From Defluviitaleaceae bacterium (GTDB taxonomy: Bacteria; Bacillota; Clostridia; Lachnospirales; WQUN01), in the NCBI GenBank assembly GCA_009780315.1, contig WRAH01000009.1:13516-77515 (forward strand): a stretch of 64,000 bases of DNA, given 5' to 3'. Shown piece by piece: positions 266 through 58,935 of the stretch; positions within the stretch are counted from its first letter, which is position 1; each line of letters begins with the position of its first letter. A model generated the notes under the pieces. That model was not told where the DNA came from, searched no databases, and saw only the letters and a program-made list of their open reading frames with translations. The translations under genes and the position numbers were made by a program.

Positions 266-2506
266 ATGATAAAAACCACAATGCATGAACTTACACAAAT
301 CGTAAATGGCGAACATGCCGACCCGCATCATGTGTTGGGAATGCATGACATTACATCTGAACAAGATGAGTATACGGTGGTGAGAGTATTCAACCCATCG
401 GCGGCAAAAGTGGAGGTTTTTAATCCAAAAAAGCTAAAAGAACGCTACACAATGGAACTTGAGCATAAAATGGGCTTTTTTATAGCAGTACTGCCACGTC
501 AAAAGCATTTTCGCTACAAACTAGCATTTACAGGACATGACGGCAATGTATGGGAATCATGGGATGCATACAGTTTTGCGCCTGCCATTTCTGAAATGGA
601 CTTACACCTTTTTGGACAAGGTACTCACTATGAAATTTATAATAAACTTGGCGCAACCCCTATGAAAATTGACGGAATAGACGGTGTGCTTTTTGGTGTA
701 TGGGCCCCCAATGCCAAACGCATAAGTGTTGTTGGGGATTTTAATGATTGGAATGGATTACGCAATCCAATGCGTACATTAGGAAATTCTGGTGTGTGGG
801 AACTTTTTATTCCAGGGCTAAAAAATTATGACAGATATAAATTTGAAATTTCGTCACACACAGGCGGATTTTTTCATAAATCTGACCCCTATGCTTTTTT
901 TGCAGAGCTTCGCCCTGAAACAGCCTCTATGGTTTTTGACATCAAAAATTATAAGTGGGAAGATAGTCAGTGGATTAAAAACCGCACAAAAAAAGACCCT
1001 CTTGATGGGCCTGTAAATATTTATGAGTTCCATGCGGGCAGTTGGCGCAAAGTGGCAGAAGACGGATGGCGTTTTATGAGCTGGCCAGAAATAACCAAGG
1101 AACTTATCCCTTATGTAAAAGACATGGGCTATACCCATATAGAGCTTATGCCCGTGACAGAATACCCCTTTGACGGCTCATGGGGTTATCAAGTGACAGG
1201 CTACTATGCCGCAACCAGCCGTTATGGCAATCCGTTGGAACTTAAAGCATTTATTGATGCCTGTCATCAAAATAATATTGGTGTCATTATGGACTGGGTA
1301 CCTGCCCACTTTCCTAAAGATGCCCATGGATTAGCATGGTTTGACGGCTCAAAATTGTATGAGCATGAAGACCCACGTCAAGGGGAACATCCCGACTGGG
1401 GAACATTGATTTTTAACTATGGACGCAATGAAGTTAAAAATTTCCTCATTGCTAATGCACTTTTTTGGATAAATGAATACCATATTGACGGCTTGCGTGT
1501 AGATGCAGTAGCTTCTATGCTATACCTAGACTATGGTAAACAATTTGGGCAATGGGTACCTAATGAATACGGCGGGCGTGAAAATTTTGAAGCCGTAGAA
1601 TTTATGAAGCATATGAATTCTATTCTGTTTGGCAAACACCCACATGTCATGATGATTGCAGAAGAATCTACCGCTTGGACAGGTGTAACCCGCCCTGCAA
1701 AATATGATGGGCTGGGTTTTAGCTTAAAATGGAATATGGGCTGGATGAATGACTTTTTAGAATATATGAGTAAGGACAGTGTTTACCGCAAACATCACCA
1801 TCACAACTTAACATTCAGTATGGTTTATGCGTACTCTGAAAAATATATTTTAGTGCTTTCTCATGACGAAGTTGTCCATGGCAAAGGTTCTCTTGTCAAT
1901 AAAATGCCTGGAGACACTTGGCAGAAGATGGCGAATCTTCGTGTTGCCTTTGGTTATATGATGGGACACCCTGGCAAAAAATTACTATTTATGGGGGGAG
2001 AGTTTGCTCAGTTTGATGAGTGGAGCGAGGAACGTACACTAGACTGGTTCTTGTTGGACGAATATGAACATCATCGCCAAATGAAAGCTTTTGTCAAGGA
2101 CATTAACCATCTTTATTTGAAGGAAAAAGCTTTATGGCAAAAAGATTTTGATAGTGAAGGATTCCAGTGGATTAGTTGTCAAGATGCCGAGCGCAGTATT
2201 ATTTCATTCTATCGCGTATCAGAAACACGCCGCCGCTCAAAAGCAGACCAAGAAGCCAAAGGTTCAACTTTTGAATATTTAGTTTTCATATGTAATTTTA
2301 CACCATACCCCCATTTAGATTATCGCACCGGTCTACCTGCCCTTGGTAGGTATGTAGAGATTTTAAACAGCGATGATGAAAAGTATGGCGGAAGTGGAAT
2401 AATCAATTCTGGCAATTTAATAGCAGAAGAACATCTTTGCGATGGCAGAGCGTACAGTGTATCCATTCAACTACCACCCCTTGGAGTTGTTATTCTAAAG
2501 GGATAA
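266..2506 (+). CDS. glgB: 1,4-alpha-glucan branching enzyme
   Basis: Track ORF 206..2506. The translation carries GH13 branching-enzyme blocks (DGLRVDAVASMLY, MIAEESTAW, LSHDEVVHGKGS). A GGGGAG SD lies 8 nt before ATG 266, so 266 is preferred over 206. Confidence 0.95.
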   Translation: MIKTTMHELTQIVNGEHADPHHVLGMHDITSEQDEYTVVRVFNPSAAKVEVFNPKKLKERYTMELEHKMGFFIAVLPRQKHFRYKLAFTGHDGNVWESWDAYSFAPAISEMDLHLFGQGTHYEIYNKLGATPMKIDGIDGVLFGVWAPNAKRISVVGDFNDWNGLRNPMRTLGNSGVWELFIPGLKNYDRYKFEISSHTGGFFHKSDPYAFFAELRPETASMVFDIKNYKWEDSQWIKNRTKKDPLDGPVNIYEFHAGSWRKVAEDGWRFMSWPEITKELIPYVKDMGYTHIELMPVTEYPFDGSWGYQVTGYYAATSRYGNPLELKAFIDACHQNNIGVIMDWVPAHFPKDAHGLAWFDGSKLYEHEDPRQGEHPDWGTLIFNYGRNEVKNFLIANALFWINEYHIDGLRVDAVASMLYLDYGKQFGQWVPNEYGGRENFEAVEFMKHMNSILFGKHPHVMMIAEESTAWTGVTRPAKYDGLGFSLKWNMGWMNDFLEYMSKDSVYRKHHHHNLTFSMVYAYSEKYILVLSHDEVVHGKGSLVNKMPGDTWQKMANLRVAFGYMMGHPGKKLLFMGGEFAQFDEWSEERTLDWFLLDEYEHHRQMKAFVKDINHLYLKEKALWQKDFDSEGFQWISCQDAERSIISFYRVSETRRRSKADQEAKGSTFEYLVFICNFTPYPHLDYRTGLPALGRYVEILNSDDEKYGGSGIINSGNLIAEEHLCDGRAYSVSIQLPPLGVVILKG

Positions 2507-47814: not shown

Positions 47815-48114
47815 TTACAATGGTTTTTTTATTATTAAGATGTCTTCCAAGAGATAGAAGGCAATCTTGTCTTGCTCTTTCCAGTTTTGATGATTCCGTA
47901 GTTCAAAATCTAACGCTATCCTGCCCAACTCGTCAATTTCACTAATGAAATAATCAGAGCTTGGTTCGCCTTCCAAGGGTTTCAGGATGATAATGGGTTC
48001 TAATGGCATGAGAACAATCTGCATACCTTGTTCAAAATTCAATTTTGTCCTTAGACTTTGAGGCACGACTAACCTTCCTAAATCGTCAATGCCTCGGGTA
48101 CCGTAGTTTTCCAT
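47815..48114 (-). CDS. Single-chain tandem SpoVT/AbrB-fold protein (two swapped-hairpin repeats)
   Basis: ATG 48114 is 8 nt after AAAGGTGG. Repeat 1 is TRGIDDLGRLVVPQSLRTKLNFEQGMQIVLMPLEPIIILKP. Repeat 2 is ISEIDELGRIALDFELRNHQNWKEQDKIAFYLLEDILIIKKP. Confidence 0.7.
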   Translation of the reverse strand: MENYGTRGIDDLGRLVVPQSLRTKLNFEQGMQIVLMPLEPIIILKPLEGEPSSDYFISEIDELGRIALDFELRNHQNWKEQDKIAFYLLEDILIIKKPL

Positions 48115-48290
48115 GAGTCTTTCCACCTTTATGTTATAAGCTGGAAATAAAATAACCTCACAAAGACGGCACCATCACACACATGTACATGCTTGAAATA
48201 TATAAACTCAAGCGTGGCCTTCCCATGGCACACACAGCAAATTTATTGGACGAATAAAATACACGATGTCTACACCTAAAGGGGGAATGC

Positions 48291-48320
48291 TTGTAAAAAG
48301 CGGGGGAAATGGTGTATAAT
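48291..48320 (+). promoter_or_regulatory. Sigma-A-type promoter of the candidate sRNA
   Basis: TTGTAA (48291-48296), an 18-nt spacer, then TATAAT (48315-48320). No plus-strand CDS follows. Confidence 0.5.
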
Positions 48321-48326
48321 CGGTTT

Positions 48327-48429
48327 GCCGCGGTGGCAGGAGTTAACCTGTTCATAATGTGTGATGGCTGACTGCCCATCCTCGTGTGAGTTGATGATGG
48401 TTCGAGCATCATCGCCCCGCGGCTTTTTT
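48327..48429 (+). ncRNA. Candidate structured small RNA (about 100 nt, four-way-junction / cloverleaf-like), family unknown
   Basis: The 5' GCCGCGG(T)GGC pairs with the 3' GCCCCGCGGC and is followed by TTTTTT. Three internal hairpins are seen at 48337-48350, at 48363-48380 (GATGG/CCATC), and at 48393-48413 (GATGATG / loop GTTCGAG / CATCATC). Confidence 0.45.
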
Positions 48430-48458
48430 ACTTTCCGCACACATAGTATATAGTAAAC

Positions 48459-48490
48459 CTTCCGCTTTGGGAAGTGTTTTTTTATTTTTC
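48459..48490 (+). terminator. Second plus-strand hairpin plus long T-run (back-up terminator)
   Basis: cttcc-gctttg-ggaag followed by tgtttttttattttt. It overlaps the stop codon of the convergent ECF gene. Confidence 0.4.
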
Positions 48491-50878
48491 CTCGACTAAT
48501 CCATATTTGATTTTGATTCTGTCGAGTTTTTCCAACATTGGGCGGGATATGATGAGTAGAAAAAAGACTGTCGCCACAGCGTGAATGATATCAAATGGAA
48601 AACCCATGATGTATGACATCAAAAACATTTCTATTGTAGGGTTGGGTTGCCACATGAGTACACTGGCAGGGTTCATGATACCGCCATAGATTATCAAAGT
48701 GGCTAAACCACCAAAAATGGCAAGAGGAATAGGGCTGGATTGCAGTAATTTTTTGTGAAATAATATCCCTGCAAGGAAGCCTATCATACCAAAGGCAAAC
48801 ATTTGCCAAGGTGTCCACGGGCCTTGACCAAAAAACATATTACTTACAAACGCAGTCACCGCACCCACTAAAAATCCTGATTCCCCGCCAAAGGCCACCC
48901 CTGCAATGATGACAATAGCAATCACAGGCTTAAATTGGGGCAACATAAAAAATGCAGACCTGCCTGCAACAGCCAATGCACAAAGTACTGCAATGACTAC
49001 AATTTCACGGGCTTGGGGCTTTCGGCTTTCAAAAATCATCATAAAGGGAATCATGGTTTGCAAGATAATGAGCATGGAAATAAAGTAAAATCTACGGTCG
49101 TCAAAAAAATATATGCCTGCATAAATGGTGATGGGGATAGACAGCAAAATTAAAGCGGCTGCCAGCATGGTACGTTTTGGCAACGGAGGTTTGGGTGGAT
49201 TGCTGGGGGGGATATATTGGGTTTCATTGTTTACATATGGTTTTGCAGGAGTATCATCAGGGGGATTAGATTTCGTGGTTGTTGTCAGTTTCCCTCCCAG
49301 GGCAGTGATGATATCTTGGGGGGTTACGGCTTCGGGCAAGACTTGACGCGCCATACGATTAGCCCCTGTGGTATAAAAGCTATTTCCGCTAAAAAATGCC
49401 TTGGGGGTGTTTTCAGCCACAATATCACCGTCAAAAAATAATGCACAACGGGTTGCATATTCTGCACAAAATTCTATGTCATGGCTTACCATAATAATTG
49501 CCGTGCCGTCTTGTGCCAACTTTTGCAGGATACCTGCAAATATTGCCTTGTATTCTGCGTCCAACCCTTTGGTTGGCTCGTCCAGCAACAGGATTTTGGG
49601 CTGGAGCAATAATACTTTTGCCAGTGCCGCCCGTTGTTGCTCTCCCCCTGACAGGTCATACGGGTGACTGTCCAGTAAGTTTTCTAAGCGGCATAACTTT
49701 ATCATTTGGGTAAATGCTGCTTCTTTTTTTGCAGGCAATACTTCCTGCAAGTCTTCCCGCAAAGTTTTTGCTACAAATAATGTTTGGGGGTTTTGGGGCA
49801 AAGCATAAACAGGCTCATGGGTATGTATTTTTCCACGGTATGGTGAATAAAGCCCTAATATGAGGGACAGGGTTGTGGTTTTGCCTGTGCCGTTTCCGCC
49901 TAAAATGGCTGTAATTTCACCATAGTTGGCTTGAAAGTTTAGCCCTTTCACCACATCAGGGAGGTTCTTTTCATATTTGAACCATAGGTCTTTTACCGTC
50001 ACAGCCCTTTTGCCTGTAGTCATTGGAGGGGGTGCGGTGGATGTTTGAATGATTTTTTGGGTGTTAAGCCAGTCTGCGCCCTCTCGTACCGTGATTGGGC
50101 ATTGGTCTTTTCCATCACAAGCCGCCCATACACGCATGGGGGTTGGCATGGCTAGAAACATGCTGTGGGCTTTGGTACGCAAGATTGTACCTATTTCAGC
50201 AGGTGTGCCATGGGCTATCATTTGCCCTTTTTCCATTACGATGACTCTGGTAGAAAGGGAAAGCACTTCCTCCAGCCGATGTTCTGTTAAAATAACCGTT
50301 GTGCCTAGTTCGCGGTTTATTTTGCCTATCATCCCTAGAAACTCCCCTGCGGCAATAGGGTCTAACTGGCTGGTTGGCTCGTCTAAAATAAGCACAGAGG
50401 GTTGCAATGCCATAATAGACGCAAGGGCTAAAATTTGCTTTTGTCCACCAGACAATTCTGTTACAGATTTGTGAAACCAAGATTGTATGCCAAAAAAACT
50501 GGCTGTTTCTGCAACACGCAAGCGGATTTCTGGGGTTTTCATGCCTAGGCTTTCCAGCCCAAAAGCAAGCTCATGCCAGACCTTGTCCGTCACTATTTGA
50601 TTTTCCGGGGATTGAAATACGAAACCAATTTTTGCAGCCCCATCCCTTGGGGATAATTCCTCCAGAGGGGTATTTTCAAAAAATATTCTGCCTGTTTTCA
50701 CCCCATGGGGTGTAGCCGATGGCTTGATATGCCTCAGTAAAGTTGTTTTTCCACAGCCTGACGACCCGCAAACCGTTATAAACTCCCCGCTTTTTATGGT
50801 CAAATTGACATTCAGCAAGGCAGGGTGTGGGCGGGTTGGATATGAAAATGTTAGGTTCTCGATTTTATACGTTTCCAT
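48482..50878 (-). CDS. ECF transporter fusion protein: ATPase (EcfA-like) + ATPase (EcfA'-like) + C-terminal S-component-like membrane domain
   Basis: ATG 50878 follows AGAGGA. There are two complete ABC cassettes (GSSGCGKTT / LSGGQKQILAL / LILDEPTSQLD and GGNGTGKTT / LSGGEQQRAAL / LLLDEPTKGLD). A P/T/N-rich linker follows, and then about 6 TM helices. Confidence 0.88.
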   Translation of the reverse strand: METYKIENLTFSYPTRPHPALLNVNLTIKSGEFITVCGSSGCGKTTLLRHIKPSATPHGVKTGRIFFENTPLEELSPRDGAAKIGFVFQSPENQIVTDKVWHELAFGLESLGMKTPEIRLRVAETASFFGIQSWFHKSVTELSGGQKQILALASIMALQPSVLILDEPTSQLDPIAAGEFLGMIGKINRELGTTVILTEHRLEEVLSLSTRVIVMEKGQMIAHGTPAEIGTILRTKAHSMFLAMPTPMRVWAACDGKDQCPITVREGADWLNTQKIIQTSTAPPPMTTGKRAVTVKDLWFKYEKNLPDVVKGLNFQANYGEITAILGGNGTGKTTTLSLILGLYSPYRGKIHTHEPVYALPQNPQTLFVAKTLREDLQEVLPAKKEAAFTQMIKLCRLENLLDSHPYDLSGGEQQRAALAKVLLLQPKILLLDEPTKGLDAEYKAIFAGILQKLAQDGTAIIMVSHDIEFCAEYATRCALFFDGDIVAENTPKAFFSGNSFYTTGANRMARQVLPEAVTPQDIITALGGKLTTTTKSNPPDDTPAKPYVNNETQYIPPSNPPKPPLPKRTMLAAALILLSIPITIYAGIYFFDDRRFYFISMLIILQTMIPFMMIFESRKPQAREIVVIAVLCALAVAGRSAFFMLPQFKPVIAIVIIAGVAFGGESGFLVGAVTAFVSNMFFGQGPWTPWQMFAFGMIGFLAGILFHKKLLQSSPIPLAIFGGLATLIIYGGIMNPASVLMWQPNPTIEMFLMSYIMGFPFDIIHAVATVFFLLIISRPMLEKLDRIKIKYGLVEEK

Positions 50879-58779: not shown

Positions 58780-58935
58780 GCTCCGTTCGGGGAAGCCATG
58801 TAGTGCCGCAACGTATCTGACTTATCAATAGCGGCAAATTGCCGCATCGCATCACAGTGACCCGCTCGCAGGGAATCTCACCCTATTCCGCTCCAAATAT
58901 TTATAAATACTAAAAATATCTTGGCAGCAGCACCA
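58780..58935 (-). promoter_or_regulatory. Probable cobalamin (B12) riboswitch, short or atypical variant
   Basis: The minus strand shows the conserved blocks in canonical order: GGTGAGATTCC (L4-type loop closed by AGGG/CCCT), GGTCACTGTGA, and a B12-box-like AAGTCAGATAC. In addition, 5' GGTGCTGC pairs with GCGGCACT just after the B12 box. A terminator lies downstream. No covariance-model search was run. Confidence 0.6.

Follow-up and report, generated by a model that had tools for sequence, protein, structure and literature searches.

What does a bacterial genome encode in an intergenic region that has a promoter, a cloverleaf-like fold and runs of T, and no open reading frame (ORF) longer than 4 codons? 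The question is raised by positions 48291-48490 of a 64,000-nucleotide (nt) stretch of contig WRAH01000009.1 from a Defluviitaleaceae bacterium (assembly GCA_009780315.1), which we call the window and whose numbering is used below. The region lies upstream of a small AbrB-type gene, and it had been predicted from the letters of the window to be an orphan promoter-to-terminator unit for an RNA of roughly 100 nt (hereafter the original prediction). Here we compare it with the remainder of its genome and with the genomes of relatives. Conserved among the copies that we found are a structured plus-strand RNA gene, a putative convergent promoter, a hairpin or terminator on the minus strand, and a copy-by-copy complementarity between the two ends of the predicted minus-strand transcript. 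Positions 48115-48489 may be read, with in our judgement an even chance of being right, as a copy of a sense/antisense RNA module, self-contained and about 340 bp long, in which the cloverleaf RNA would act as a cis-antisense countertranscript that controls the leader of the minus-strand transcript.

The cloverleaf RNA and its promoter

A plus-strand promoter-to-terminator unit for a non-coding RNA of about 100 nt is what the region appears to hold, as had been predicted. Its parts are as follows.

48291..48320, plus strand: sigma-70-type promoter, -35 TTGTAA, 18 nt, -10 TATAAT (10 of 12 matches in a promoter scan)
48327..48430, plus strand: cloverleaf RNA of about 104 nt, putative countertranscript, from its fold, its covariation and a score of 83 bits with covariance model R1 (described below)
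48327-48336 (GCCGCGGuGG) with 48415-48423 (CC(C)CGCGGC), plus strand: closing stem P1, from folding of 48321-48435
48337-48350, plus strand: hairpin P2, CAGG/CCUG, from folding
48351-48389, plus strand: hairpin P3, from folding
48393-48413, plus strand: hairpin P4, GAUGAUG/CAUCAUC with loop GUUCGAG, from folding
48424-48429, plus strand: U-run (T6), directly 3' of P1

The RNA probably starts at about 48327, which is the first base of P1, and in the family as a rule its predicted end is P1 with a U-run; promoters, starts and ends were assigned on this strand and on the other from sequence conservation. Folding of 48321-48435 gave a minimum free energy (MFE) of -42.8 kcal/mol (z = -3.2), and 1 of 200 shuffled sequences was equally stable. 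The promoter hexamers are kept in 49 of 50 non-redundant copies, with variable spacers, and the promoter always ends 0-1 nt before the start of the model.

No recognised RNA family had been seen in the region, and a search of Rfam 15 agreed: 48100-48600 gave nothing relevant on either strand at E <= 10, the tRNA clan included, and the loci of 13 relatives gave no relevant family at E <= 0.1. When the whole window was scanned at the Rfam gathering thresholds, the sole match was an unrelated ribosomal protein L10 leader (RF00557, 16842-16992, minus strand, 59.1 bits), and the same scan gave no Cobalamin match at 58780-58935.

The geometry had also been described as tRNA-like, a description that the comparison of copies does not bear out. 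ARAGORN found no tRNA or transfer-messenger RNA gene in the 64-kb window. Among 60 copies the loops differ in length and sequence, the junctions are 0-3 nt, and no nucleotides characteristic of a D-, T- or anticodon loop are conserved. The P4 loop GUUCGAG, which had suggested a T-loop, is particular to the window copy, and the loops and stems of P4 differ in nearly every copy. The want of conserved nucleotides in loops and junctions argues against a tRNA-like RNA and equally against a ligand-binding aptamer; a riboswitch aptamer is further at odds with downstream genes that are mutually unrelated. Nor does the region appear to code for protein, as no frame is conserved on either strand. A recurring peptide, VNLPPR, is the translation of the conserved antisense of P1 and P2, in a frame that differs between copies, and in the GU-rich stretch of the minus-strand RNA a candidate ORF for a small toxin was rejected on a frameshift between two closely related copies.

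A family of dispersed copies

When 48280-48490 was compared with its own genome (2.9 Mb in 73 contigs) by nhmmer and BLAST, matches were found at 16 places on both strands, so that the element is not an orphan. In an alignment of these copies the -35 and -10 hexamers and stems P1-P3 are kept, and the sequence of P4 differs yet always pairs. Covariance model R1 was built from 15 of the copies, which score 76-96 bits; the sixteenth, decayed copy scores 37 bits. This decayed copy (G000 C23:44592-44698) is near a contig end, lacks the 5' strand of P1 and the plus-strand promoter, and is preceded by a (GCTT)n-type microsatellite.

The genomes compared are metagenome-assembled genomes (MAGs). Model R1 (E <= 1e-3) detected copies in 21 of 40 Defluviitaleaceae genomes, at 1-28 per genome, and in none of the 114 genomes sampled from 33 other families of the order. 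A scan for the exact pattern in one genome per species (185,579 species) returned 21 loci, all of them in termite-gut Defluviitaleaceae MAGs; the termite-gut set is that of PMC7024585. The module is so far found only in uncultured termite-gut Defluviitaleaceae, and some of these genomes repeat it 15-28 times, the copy number between related genomes ranging from 0 to 28. In two genomes, G010 and G027, many copies are near contig ends, in G010 (28 copies) within a few hundred bases. At five of the G010 loci (L107 and L109-L112) the 3' strand of P1 (GCUGUAGC) is followed by a second P1 5' strand (GCUACAGC), which gives an alternative hairpin in place of the U-run.

Covariation and strand of the fold

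Conservation and covariation in related genomes had been named as a check on the original prediction, and both were found. In 60 copies aligned to R1, 91.4% of the cells hold standard pairs and 21 of the 24 modelled pairs show compensatory change; none of 500 shuffles reached the observed values, and pairing fell to 29-56% in controls with slid partners. P4 was left out of R1 and so can be used to check the fold independently. In all 60 copies it forms one hairpin, with a median of 9 bp and 45 distinct 5' arms, and its cognate arms pair at -12.2 kcal/mol as against -7.05 kcal/mol for non-cognate chimeras. P2 and P3, by contrast with the copy-specific P4, are near-identical between copies.

The strand of the fold is indicated by the stems P1-P3, in which 189 G.U pairs stand against 6 A.C pairs over the 60 copies; the excess of G.U assigns the fold to the plus strand. 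Likewise, in every one of the 60 copies the antisense folds less stably than the plus strand (-35.2 vs -46.7 kcal/mol). It is well supported by these comparisons that the cloverleaf represents an undescribed family of structured RNA, with strong covariation, a clear strand, and what appear to be its own promoter and terminator.

A putative convergent promoter on the minus strand

The conserved block reaches well to the left and to the right of the cloverleaf. On the opposite strand the following features are read.

48445..48489, minus strand: putative convergent promoter, -35 TTCCCA (48473-48468), -10 TATACT (48450-48445), with an A-rich upstream stretch that is the complement of the T-run at 48477-48489; the site was also returned by the promoter scan
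48115..48438, minus strand: predicted leader, a 5' untranslated region of about 324 nt, its first 110 nt or so the exact antisense of the cloverleaf; the stretch is conserved in all copies
48351..48389, minus strand: antisense of P3 (segments 1 and 2), with predicted long-range pairing to 48160-48189
48160..48189, minus strand: conserved leader hairpin (segments 3 and 4: GUGUGAUGG-UG-CCGUC...), homologous to the strong terminator of other copies
48191..48213, minus strand: optional small hairpin GCUUGA...UCAAGC, present in about half of the copies in the source genome
47815..48114, minus strand: gene for a tandem-AbrB (single-chain swapped-hairpin) protein of 99 amino acids (aa), with ribosome binding site (RBS) AAGGUGG 8 nt before the ATG

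The minus-strand transcript probably starts at about 48438. Its promoter lies convergent to that of the cloverleaf RNA at a distance of about 110-130 bp, and the positions of the two are kept in about 50 copies, again with variable spacers. Across the family the minus-strand promoter has the form TTGCAt or TTTACA, 17-18 nt, and TGtTAGAAT or TAAAAT, 12-30 nt past P1. In the source genome TTCCCA or TTTACA is followed after 17 nt by TATACT, TAAAAT or TATAGT; in relatives TTGCAt is followed after 17-18 nt by TGtTAGAAT, 12-14 nt past P1 and with an A-rich stretch ahead.

This arrangement changes the meaning of the second hairpin and T-run (48459-48489), which might be taken for a second plus-strand terminator. 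They exist in the window copy; across the family, however, the hairpin is not kept, whereas the promoter hexamers and their spacing are, and a better reading of 48459-48489 is that it holds the -35 box of the convergent promoter and an A-rich, UP-like element. Two other expectations of the original prediction fare well: the cloverleaf unit is not the terminator of the minus-strand extracytoplasmic function (ECF) operon, and a minus-strand transcript entering the tandem-AbrB gene would be perfectly complementary to the cloverleaf RNA, the conserved promoter being placed where such a transcript would need it. From that start the predicted transcript would run through the whole antisense of the cloverleaf, across the plus-strand promoter and a poorly conserved GU-rich stretch, and into the conserved hairpin. 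The minus-strand fold has z = -4.4.

The leader hairpin and its alternative partner

In relatives the leader hairpin has the form of a strong intrinsic terminator, GGUGUGUAGGUGAUGGCAG-loop-CUGCCGUCCUUGCACACC followed by U5-8, with folding energies of -17 to -33 kcal/mol, and it lies 231-341 nt from the putative minus-strand start. A strong terminator of this kind is present in about 38 of 50 copies, and its U.G pairs are valid on the minus strand only. In the window the hairpin is weak and UUAUUUUAUUU follows in place of a clean U-run; the six other AbrB-linked copies likewise have a weak hairpin and no clean U-run.

The 5' half of the terminator is also complementary to the antisense of the 5' arm of P3, in a duplex of -20 to -25 kcal/mol that always falls at about positions 74-77 of the antisense core. 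Folding of the full-length RNA left the terminator intact in the MFE structure of about 60% of copies and disrupted it in about 35%, so that two near iso-energetic folds are predicted. For the window copy the long-range duplex is calculated at -27.1 kcal/mol as against -5.4 kcal/mol for the local hairpin, and for the seven AbrB-linked copies together (see below) at -24 to -29 kcal/mol as against -5 to -13 kcal/mol.

In the source genome the two segments also change together from copy to copy. The 5' arm of P3 and its cognate leader hairpin are identical at 10.0 of 14 positions, compared with 8.5 of 14 for non-cognate combinations, a value as high being reached in 6 of 10,000 permutations; GTGCTGAGTGATGG and GTGCAGAGTGATGG are an example of such copy-by-copy covariation. 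The comparison is an identity test anchored on the motif, and replaced a test on long-window duplexes in which the energies were inflated.

Genes downstream of the module

In the source genome a tandem-AbrB gene of about 100 codons lies next on the minus strand after seven of the 15 copies, that of the window among them, and the products are 38-69% identical. Each of the seven has two AbrB-type half-domains in one chain; Pfam gives MazE_antitoxin in all seven and MraZ in five, and matches in the PDB to the N-domains of AbrB, Abh and SpoVT cover both halves. Of the 15, these seven and no others are without a strong terminator in the leader, and six of them also lack the U-run after P1. In another genus, g17, at least 9 copies precede genes for a single-domain AbrB protein (55-60 aa) or for AbrB joined to a CxxC...CxxC zinc ribbon (about 85 aa). 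The linkage is not universal: it is confined to genera g1 and g17, and in four other genomes the module is missing from the surroundings of full-length tandem-AbrB homologues. A scan of the genome contigs with a single protein returned no AbrB relatives. Three more distant tandem-AbrB-like ORFs of the source genome (G000 C71:230-523, C17:25039-25302 and C15:1154-1423) do not lie beside a match to the module.

Over the family, the next gene in the direction of the minus-strand RNA is co-directional with it in 31 of 44 cases, as against 26 of 47 on the other side, figures that are only indicative as the copies are related. At two loci of genome G036 (L021 and L042), paralogous genes for a protein of about 170 aa (MNID..R.VC..G...), which we take by eye to be DUF1273/SLOG-like, start right after the leader terminator. 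At L034 a cobalamin riboswitch (RF00174, 82 bits; 506-763, minus strand) lies between the module terminator and the next gene, so that the module there is separate from an independently regulated gene.

Unit of duplication

Two copies that are 10 kb apart in the source genome are 92% identical over 338-340 bp and have no similarity outside this span, which extends from the A-run of the minus-strand terminator to the T-run past the minus-strand -35 box. The units of G010 are 400-560 bp long, with 82-95% identity and equally sharp ends. Repeats with such ends imply that the module is duplicated, or homogenised, as a whole transcription unit. Neither terminal inverted repeats nor target-site duplications were found at the ends of the units in G000 or G010.

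In genus g17 (L085-L093 of genome G017; for example L089 and L090) the leader terminator is closely followed by a 13-nt sequence, CCGCTGGCCTTTC, whose complement is found at the 5' end of the minus-strand RNA. The pair could form a helix closing the 5' and 3' ends or an inverted repeat near the ends of the unit, and is seen in g17 only. In a comparison with a same-genus genome, synteny stops at the ECF stop codon and no empty site can be defined. There (L072 1290-1490, G001:C58) a near-perfect palindrome of about 190 bp (tcatccgccttgggggagtggc ... gccactcccccaaggcggatga) after the ECF gene replaces the module.

Proposed mechanism and alternative explanations

As a control device the module would work in the following way. 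The cloverleaf RNA would pair with the first 110 nt or so of the nascent minus-strand transcript and so take away the partner of the 5' half of the leader hairpin. The leader could then refold to the local hairpin or terminator, or alternatively the duplex might be cleaved, and either outcome would lower expression downstream, here that of the AbrB-type gene. The convergent promoters would add transcriptional interference. In the window copy the minus-strand transcript is expected to pass the weak hairpin into the 99-aa tandem-AbrB gene. Since P2 and P3 are near-identical and P4 is copy-specific, partial cross-talk between copies is possible. The AbrB proteins may regulate the promoters of the module, or may be harmful products like SymE.

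Several observations weigh against control of a leader. In many relatives the local hairpins (1:2 with 3:4) are about equal to or better than the antiterminator (2:3), so that either fold may be the default and control may run in either direction. The window hairpin has no clean U-run, so that in this copy the supposed attenuation may be a matter of refolding or processing and not of termination. The transcripts of both strands, with their starts and ends, are predicted from sequence conservation; the covariation counts are favoured by an alignment fitted to the model; and the copies are mutually related rather than independent, for which reason the permutation and binomial figures overstate the support. 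Finally, the other downstream genes are diverse (flagellin, DNA polymerase III alpha subunit, DUF1273-like and membrane proteins, a cytosine methyltransferase) and about 30% of copies have no co-directional gene, which means that many copies may be free-standing RNA pairs and not leaders.

The last point can be extended to the whole family. The module would then be a multicopy pair of small RNAs, in which either the cloverleaf or the minus-strand RNA of about 270-330 nt acts in trans, its partner sets how much of it is present, either as a sponge or through interference, and the neighbouring genes are not controlled at all. We regard this as possible but doubtful. It agrees with a unit of duplication that is a complete promoter-to-terminator unit, with the strong terminators of most relatives, with the unrelated or missing downstream genes and with the separate riboswitch at L034, and conservation of P2 and P3 between copies is what a shared protein or target site would produce. 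For the conservation of P3, however, an explanation already exists in its complementarity to the leader hairpin, with which it co-varies copy by copy, and all three loops vary, leaving no conserved loop or junction nucleotides for a seed or a protein site. The co-directional bias (31 of 44) and the loss of the strong terminator in just the seven AbrB-linked copies also favour a tie to the genes downstream.

Two further explanations seem to us improbable, and to the same degree. Under the first the module is a type I toxin-antitoxin-like system of the SymE/SymR kind, in which the AbrB-fold product is harmful and is silenced by the cloverleaf RNA, copies without a gene being remnants. Multicopy dispersal is typical of type I systems, and in two genera the module is repeatedly followed by AbrB-fold genes. 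SymE/SymR itself is a precedent for the control of an AbrB-superfamily protein by a cis-antisense RNA (PMC1891008). The details fit less well: at E <= 1 the Pfam matches are MazE_antitoxin (7 of 7) and MraZ (5 of 7) with no match to SymE_toxin, the best PDB matches are the DNA-binding proteins AbrB, Abh and SpoVT, and the antisense RNA, instead of covering the RBS, is placed over 200 nt upstream of it. Moreover, most copies in most genomes have no AbrB gene, full-length homologues of the tandem-AbrB protein occur in four other genomes away from any module, and the minus-strand RNA holds no conserved small ORF, its frames differing between copies.

Under the second, the copies are a selfish non-autonomous element, similar to a miniature inverted-repeat transposable element, that spreads in intergenic DNA and whose promoters and hairpins are incidental or help it to propagate. 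Sharp-ended repeats with 82-95% identity inside and none outside, a copy number of 0-28 between related genomes, the many copies of G010 and G027 at contig ends, and the 13-nt inverted repeat CCGCTGGCCTTTC near both ends of the g17 copies would all suit such an element. Yet no transposase is associated with the copies, and terminal inverted repeats and target-site duplications were absent from G000 and G010. Selection at the RNA level is evident on both strands in the G.U asymmetry and the compensatory changes, and the AbrB paralogues behind the copies are only 38-69% identical, as expected of copies that are old and maintained. A regulatory function would in any case be compatible with mobility.

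That the plus-strand promoter is an invertible switch, flipping between the inverted repeats at 48170-48183 and 48356-48369 (CCATCACACA / TGTGTGATGG), which do flank it, to drive the AbrB gene is very improbable, for in most relatives the arms differ by a constant 1-nt indel (GTGTGTTAGG vs GTGTGTAGG), the repeats carry strand-specific G.U pairs, a dedicated minus-strand promoter is already conserved, a genome with 10-28 identical sites for recombination would be at risk, and no recombinase was seen beside the 15 copies.

Control of the leader by the cloverleaf countertranscript remains the reading that we adopt here. Whatever its role, the module accounts for a set of long, conserved and seemingly empty intergenic regions in the genomes of termite-gut Defluviitaleaceae. 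To our knowledge, control of a leader by a countertranscript is known mainly from plasmid replication and conjugation. If the mechanism is true, such control can also operate from the chromosome, in many copies and ahead of ordinary genes, and single-chain AbrB-fold proteins are tied to control at the level of RNA. One may go further and suppose that a circuit like those of plasmid copy control has become a dispersed chromosomal device of 10-28 units with near-identical P2 and P3 and differing P4, in which read-through into many unrelated genes (AbrB-type, flagellin, dnaE and others) is linked by cross-talk of the pooled countertranscripts to give one RNA regulon and the units spread whole without a transposase; we consider this extension unlikely. 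Because it is compact (about 340 bp) and self-contained, the module is directly testable in a laboratory Firmicute.

Comparison with known systems

With the tRNA cloverleaf the RNA shares a closing stem around three hairpins and a length of about 97 nt. It differs in its negative ARAGORN and Rfam searches, in loops without conserved nucleotides, in junctions of 0-3 nt, and in that a T-loop-like loop occurs in the window copy only.

In E. coli the 5' region of the mRNA for SymE, a member of the AbrB superfamily, is overlapped by SymR, a stable cis-encoded antisense RNA (PMC1891008). Some copies of the module would likewise place an AbrB-superfamily gene under a cis-antisense RNA. Unlike SymR, which covers the region of the start codon, the cloverleaf (48327-48430; start codon at 48114) would overlap its partner at a distance of over 200 nt from the RBS, on the upstream side; the SymE signature is missing from its tandem-AbrB protein, and most copies have no protein gene.

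Convergent overlapping promoters, with an antisense RNA that promotes premature termination of the sense transcript, are described for prgQ/prgX of pCF10 (Anti-Q/Qs; PMC3181467) and for RnaG/icsA (PMC2879508). The module resembles both in its convergent overlapping promoters. Both are single plasmid loci serving one operon each, whereas the module is a dispersed family in which about a third of copies have no co-directional gene.

A comparison may finally be made with the attenuators of the inc18 and pT181 plasmids, where pT181 (RNAI/II-repC) shares the antisense attenuation logic of pIP501. pIP501 combines RNAIII, the convergent promoters pII and pIII, a leader attenuator and a small DNA-binding protein (PMC4981023). 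As in these systems (RNAIII/RNAII-repR with CopR in pIP501; pAMbeta1), the module is predicted to have a multi-hairpin countertranscript of about 100-140 nt, whose promoter lies inside and convergent to a leader of about 300 nt, and, in most copies, a strong intrinsic terminator near the end of the leader, the 5' half of which has an alternative upstream partner that the antisense RNA covers. A gene for a small protein with a DNA-binding fold is also present at the locus in some copies. The module differs from the plasmid attenuators in being chromosomal and in having 10-28 copies per genome, no rep gene or origin, and downstream genes that are diverse or absent. Its countertranscript is closed by P1 into a four-way junction and has no sequence similarity to theirs, and its protein is of the AbrB fold and encoded downstream of the leader, whereas CopR of pIP501 is encoded upstream. 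The RNA family is undescribed, and the class of mechanism in which we place it is already known.

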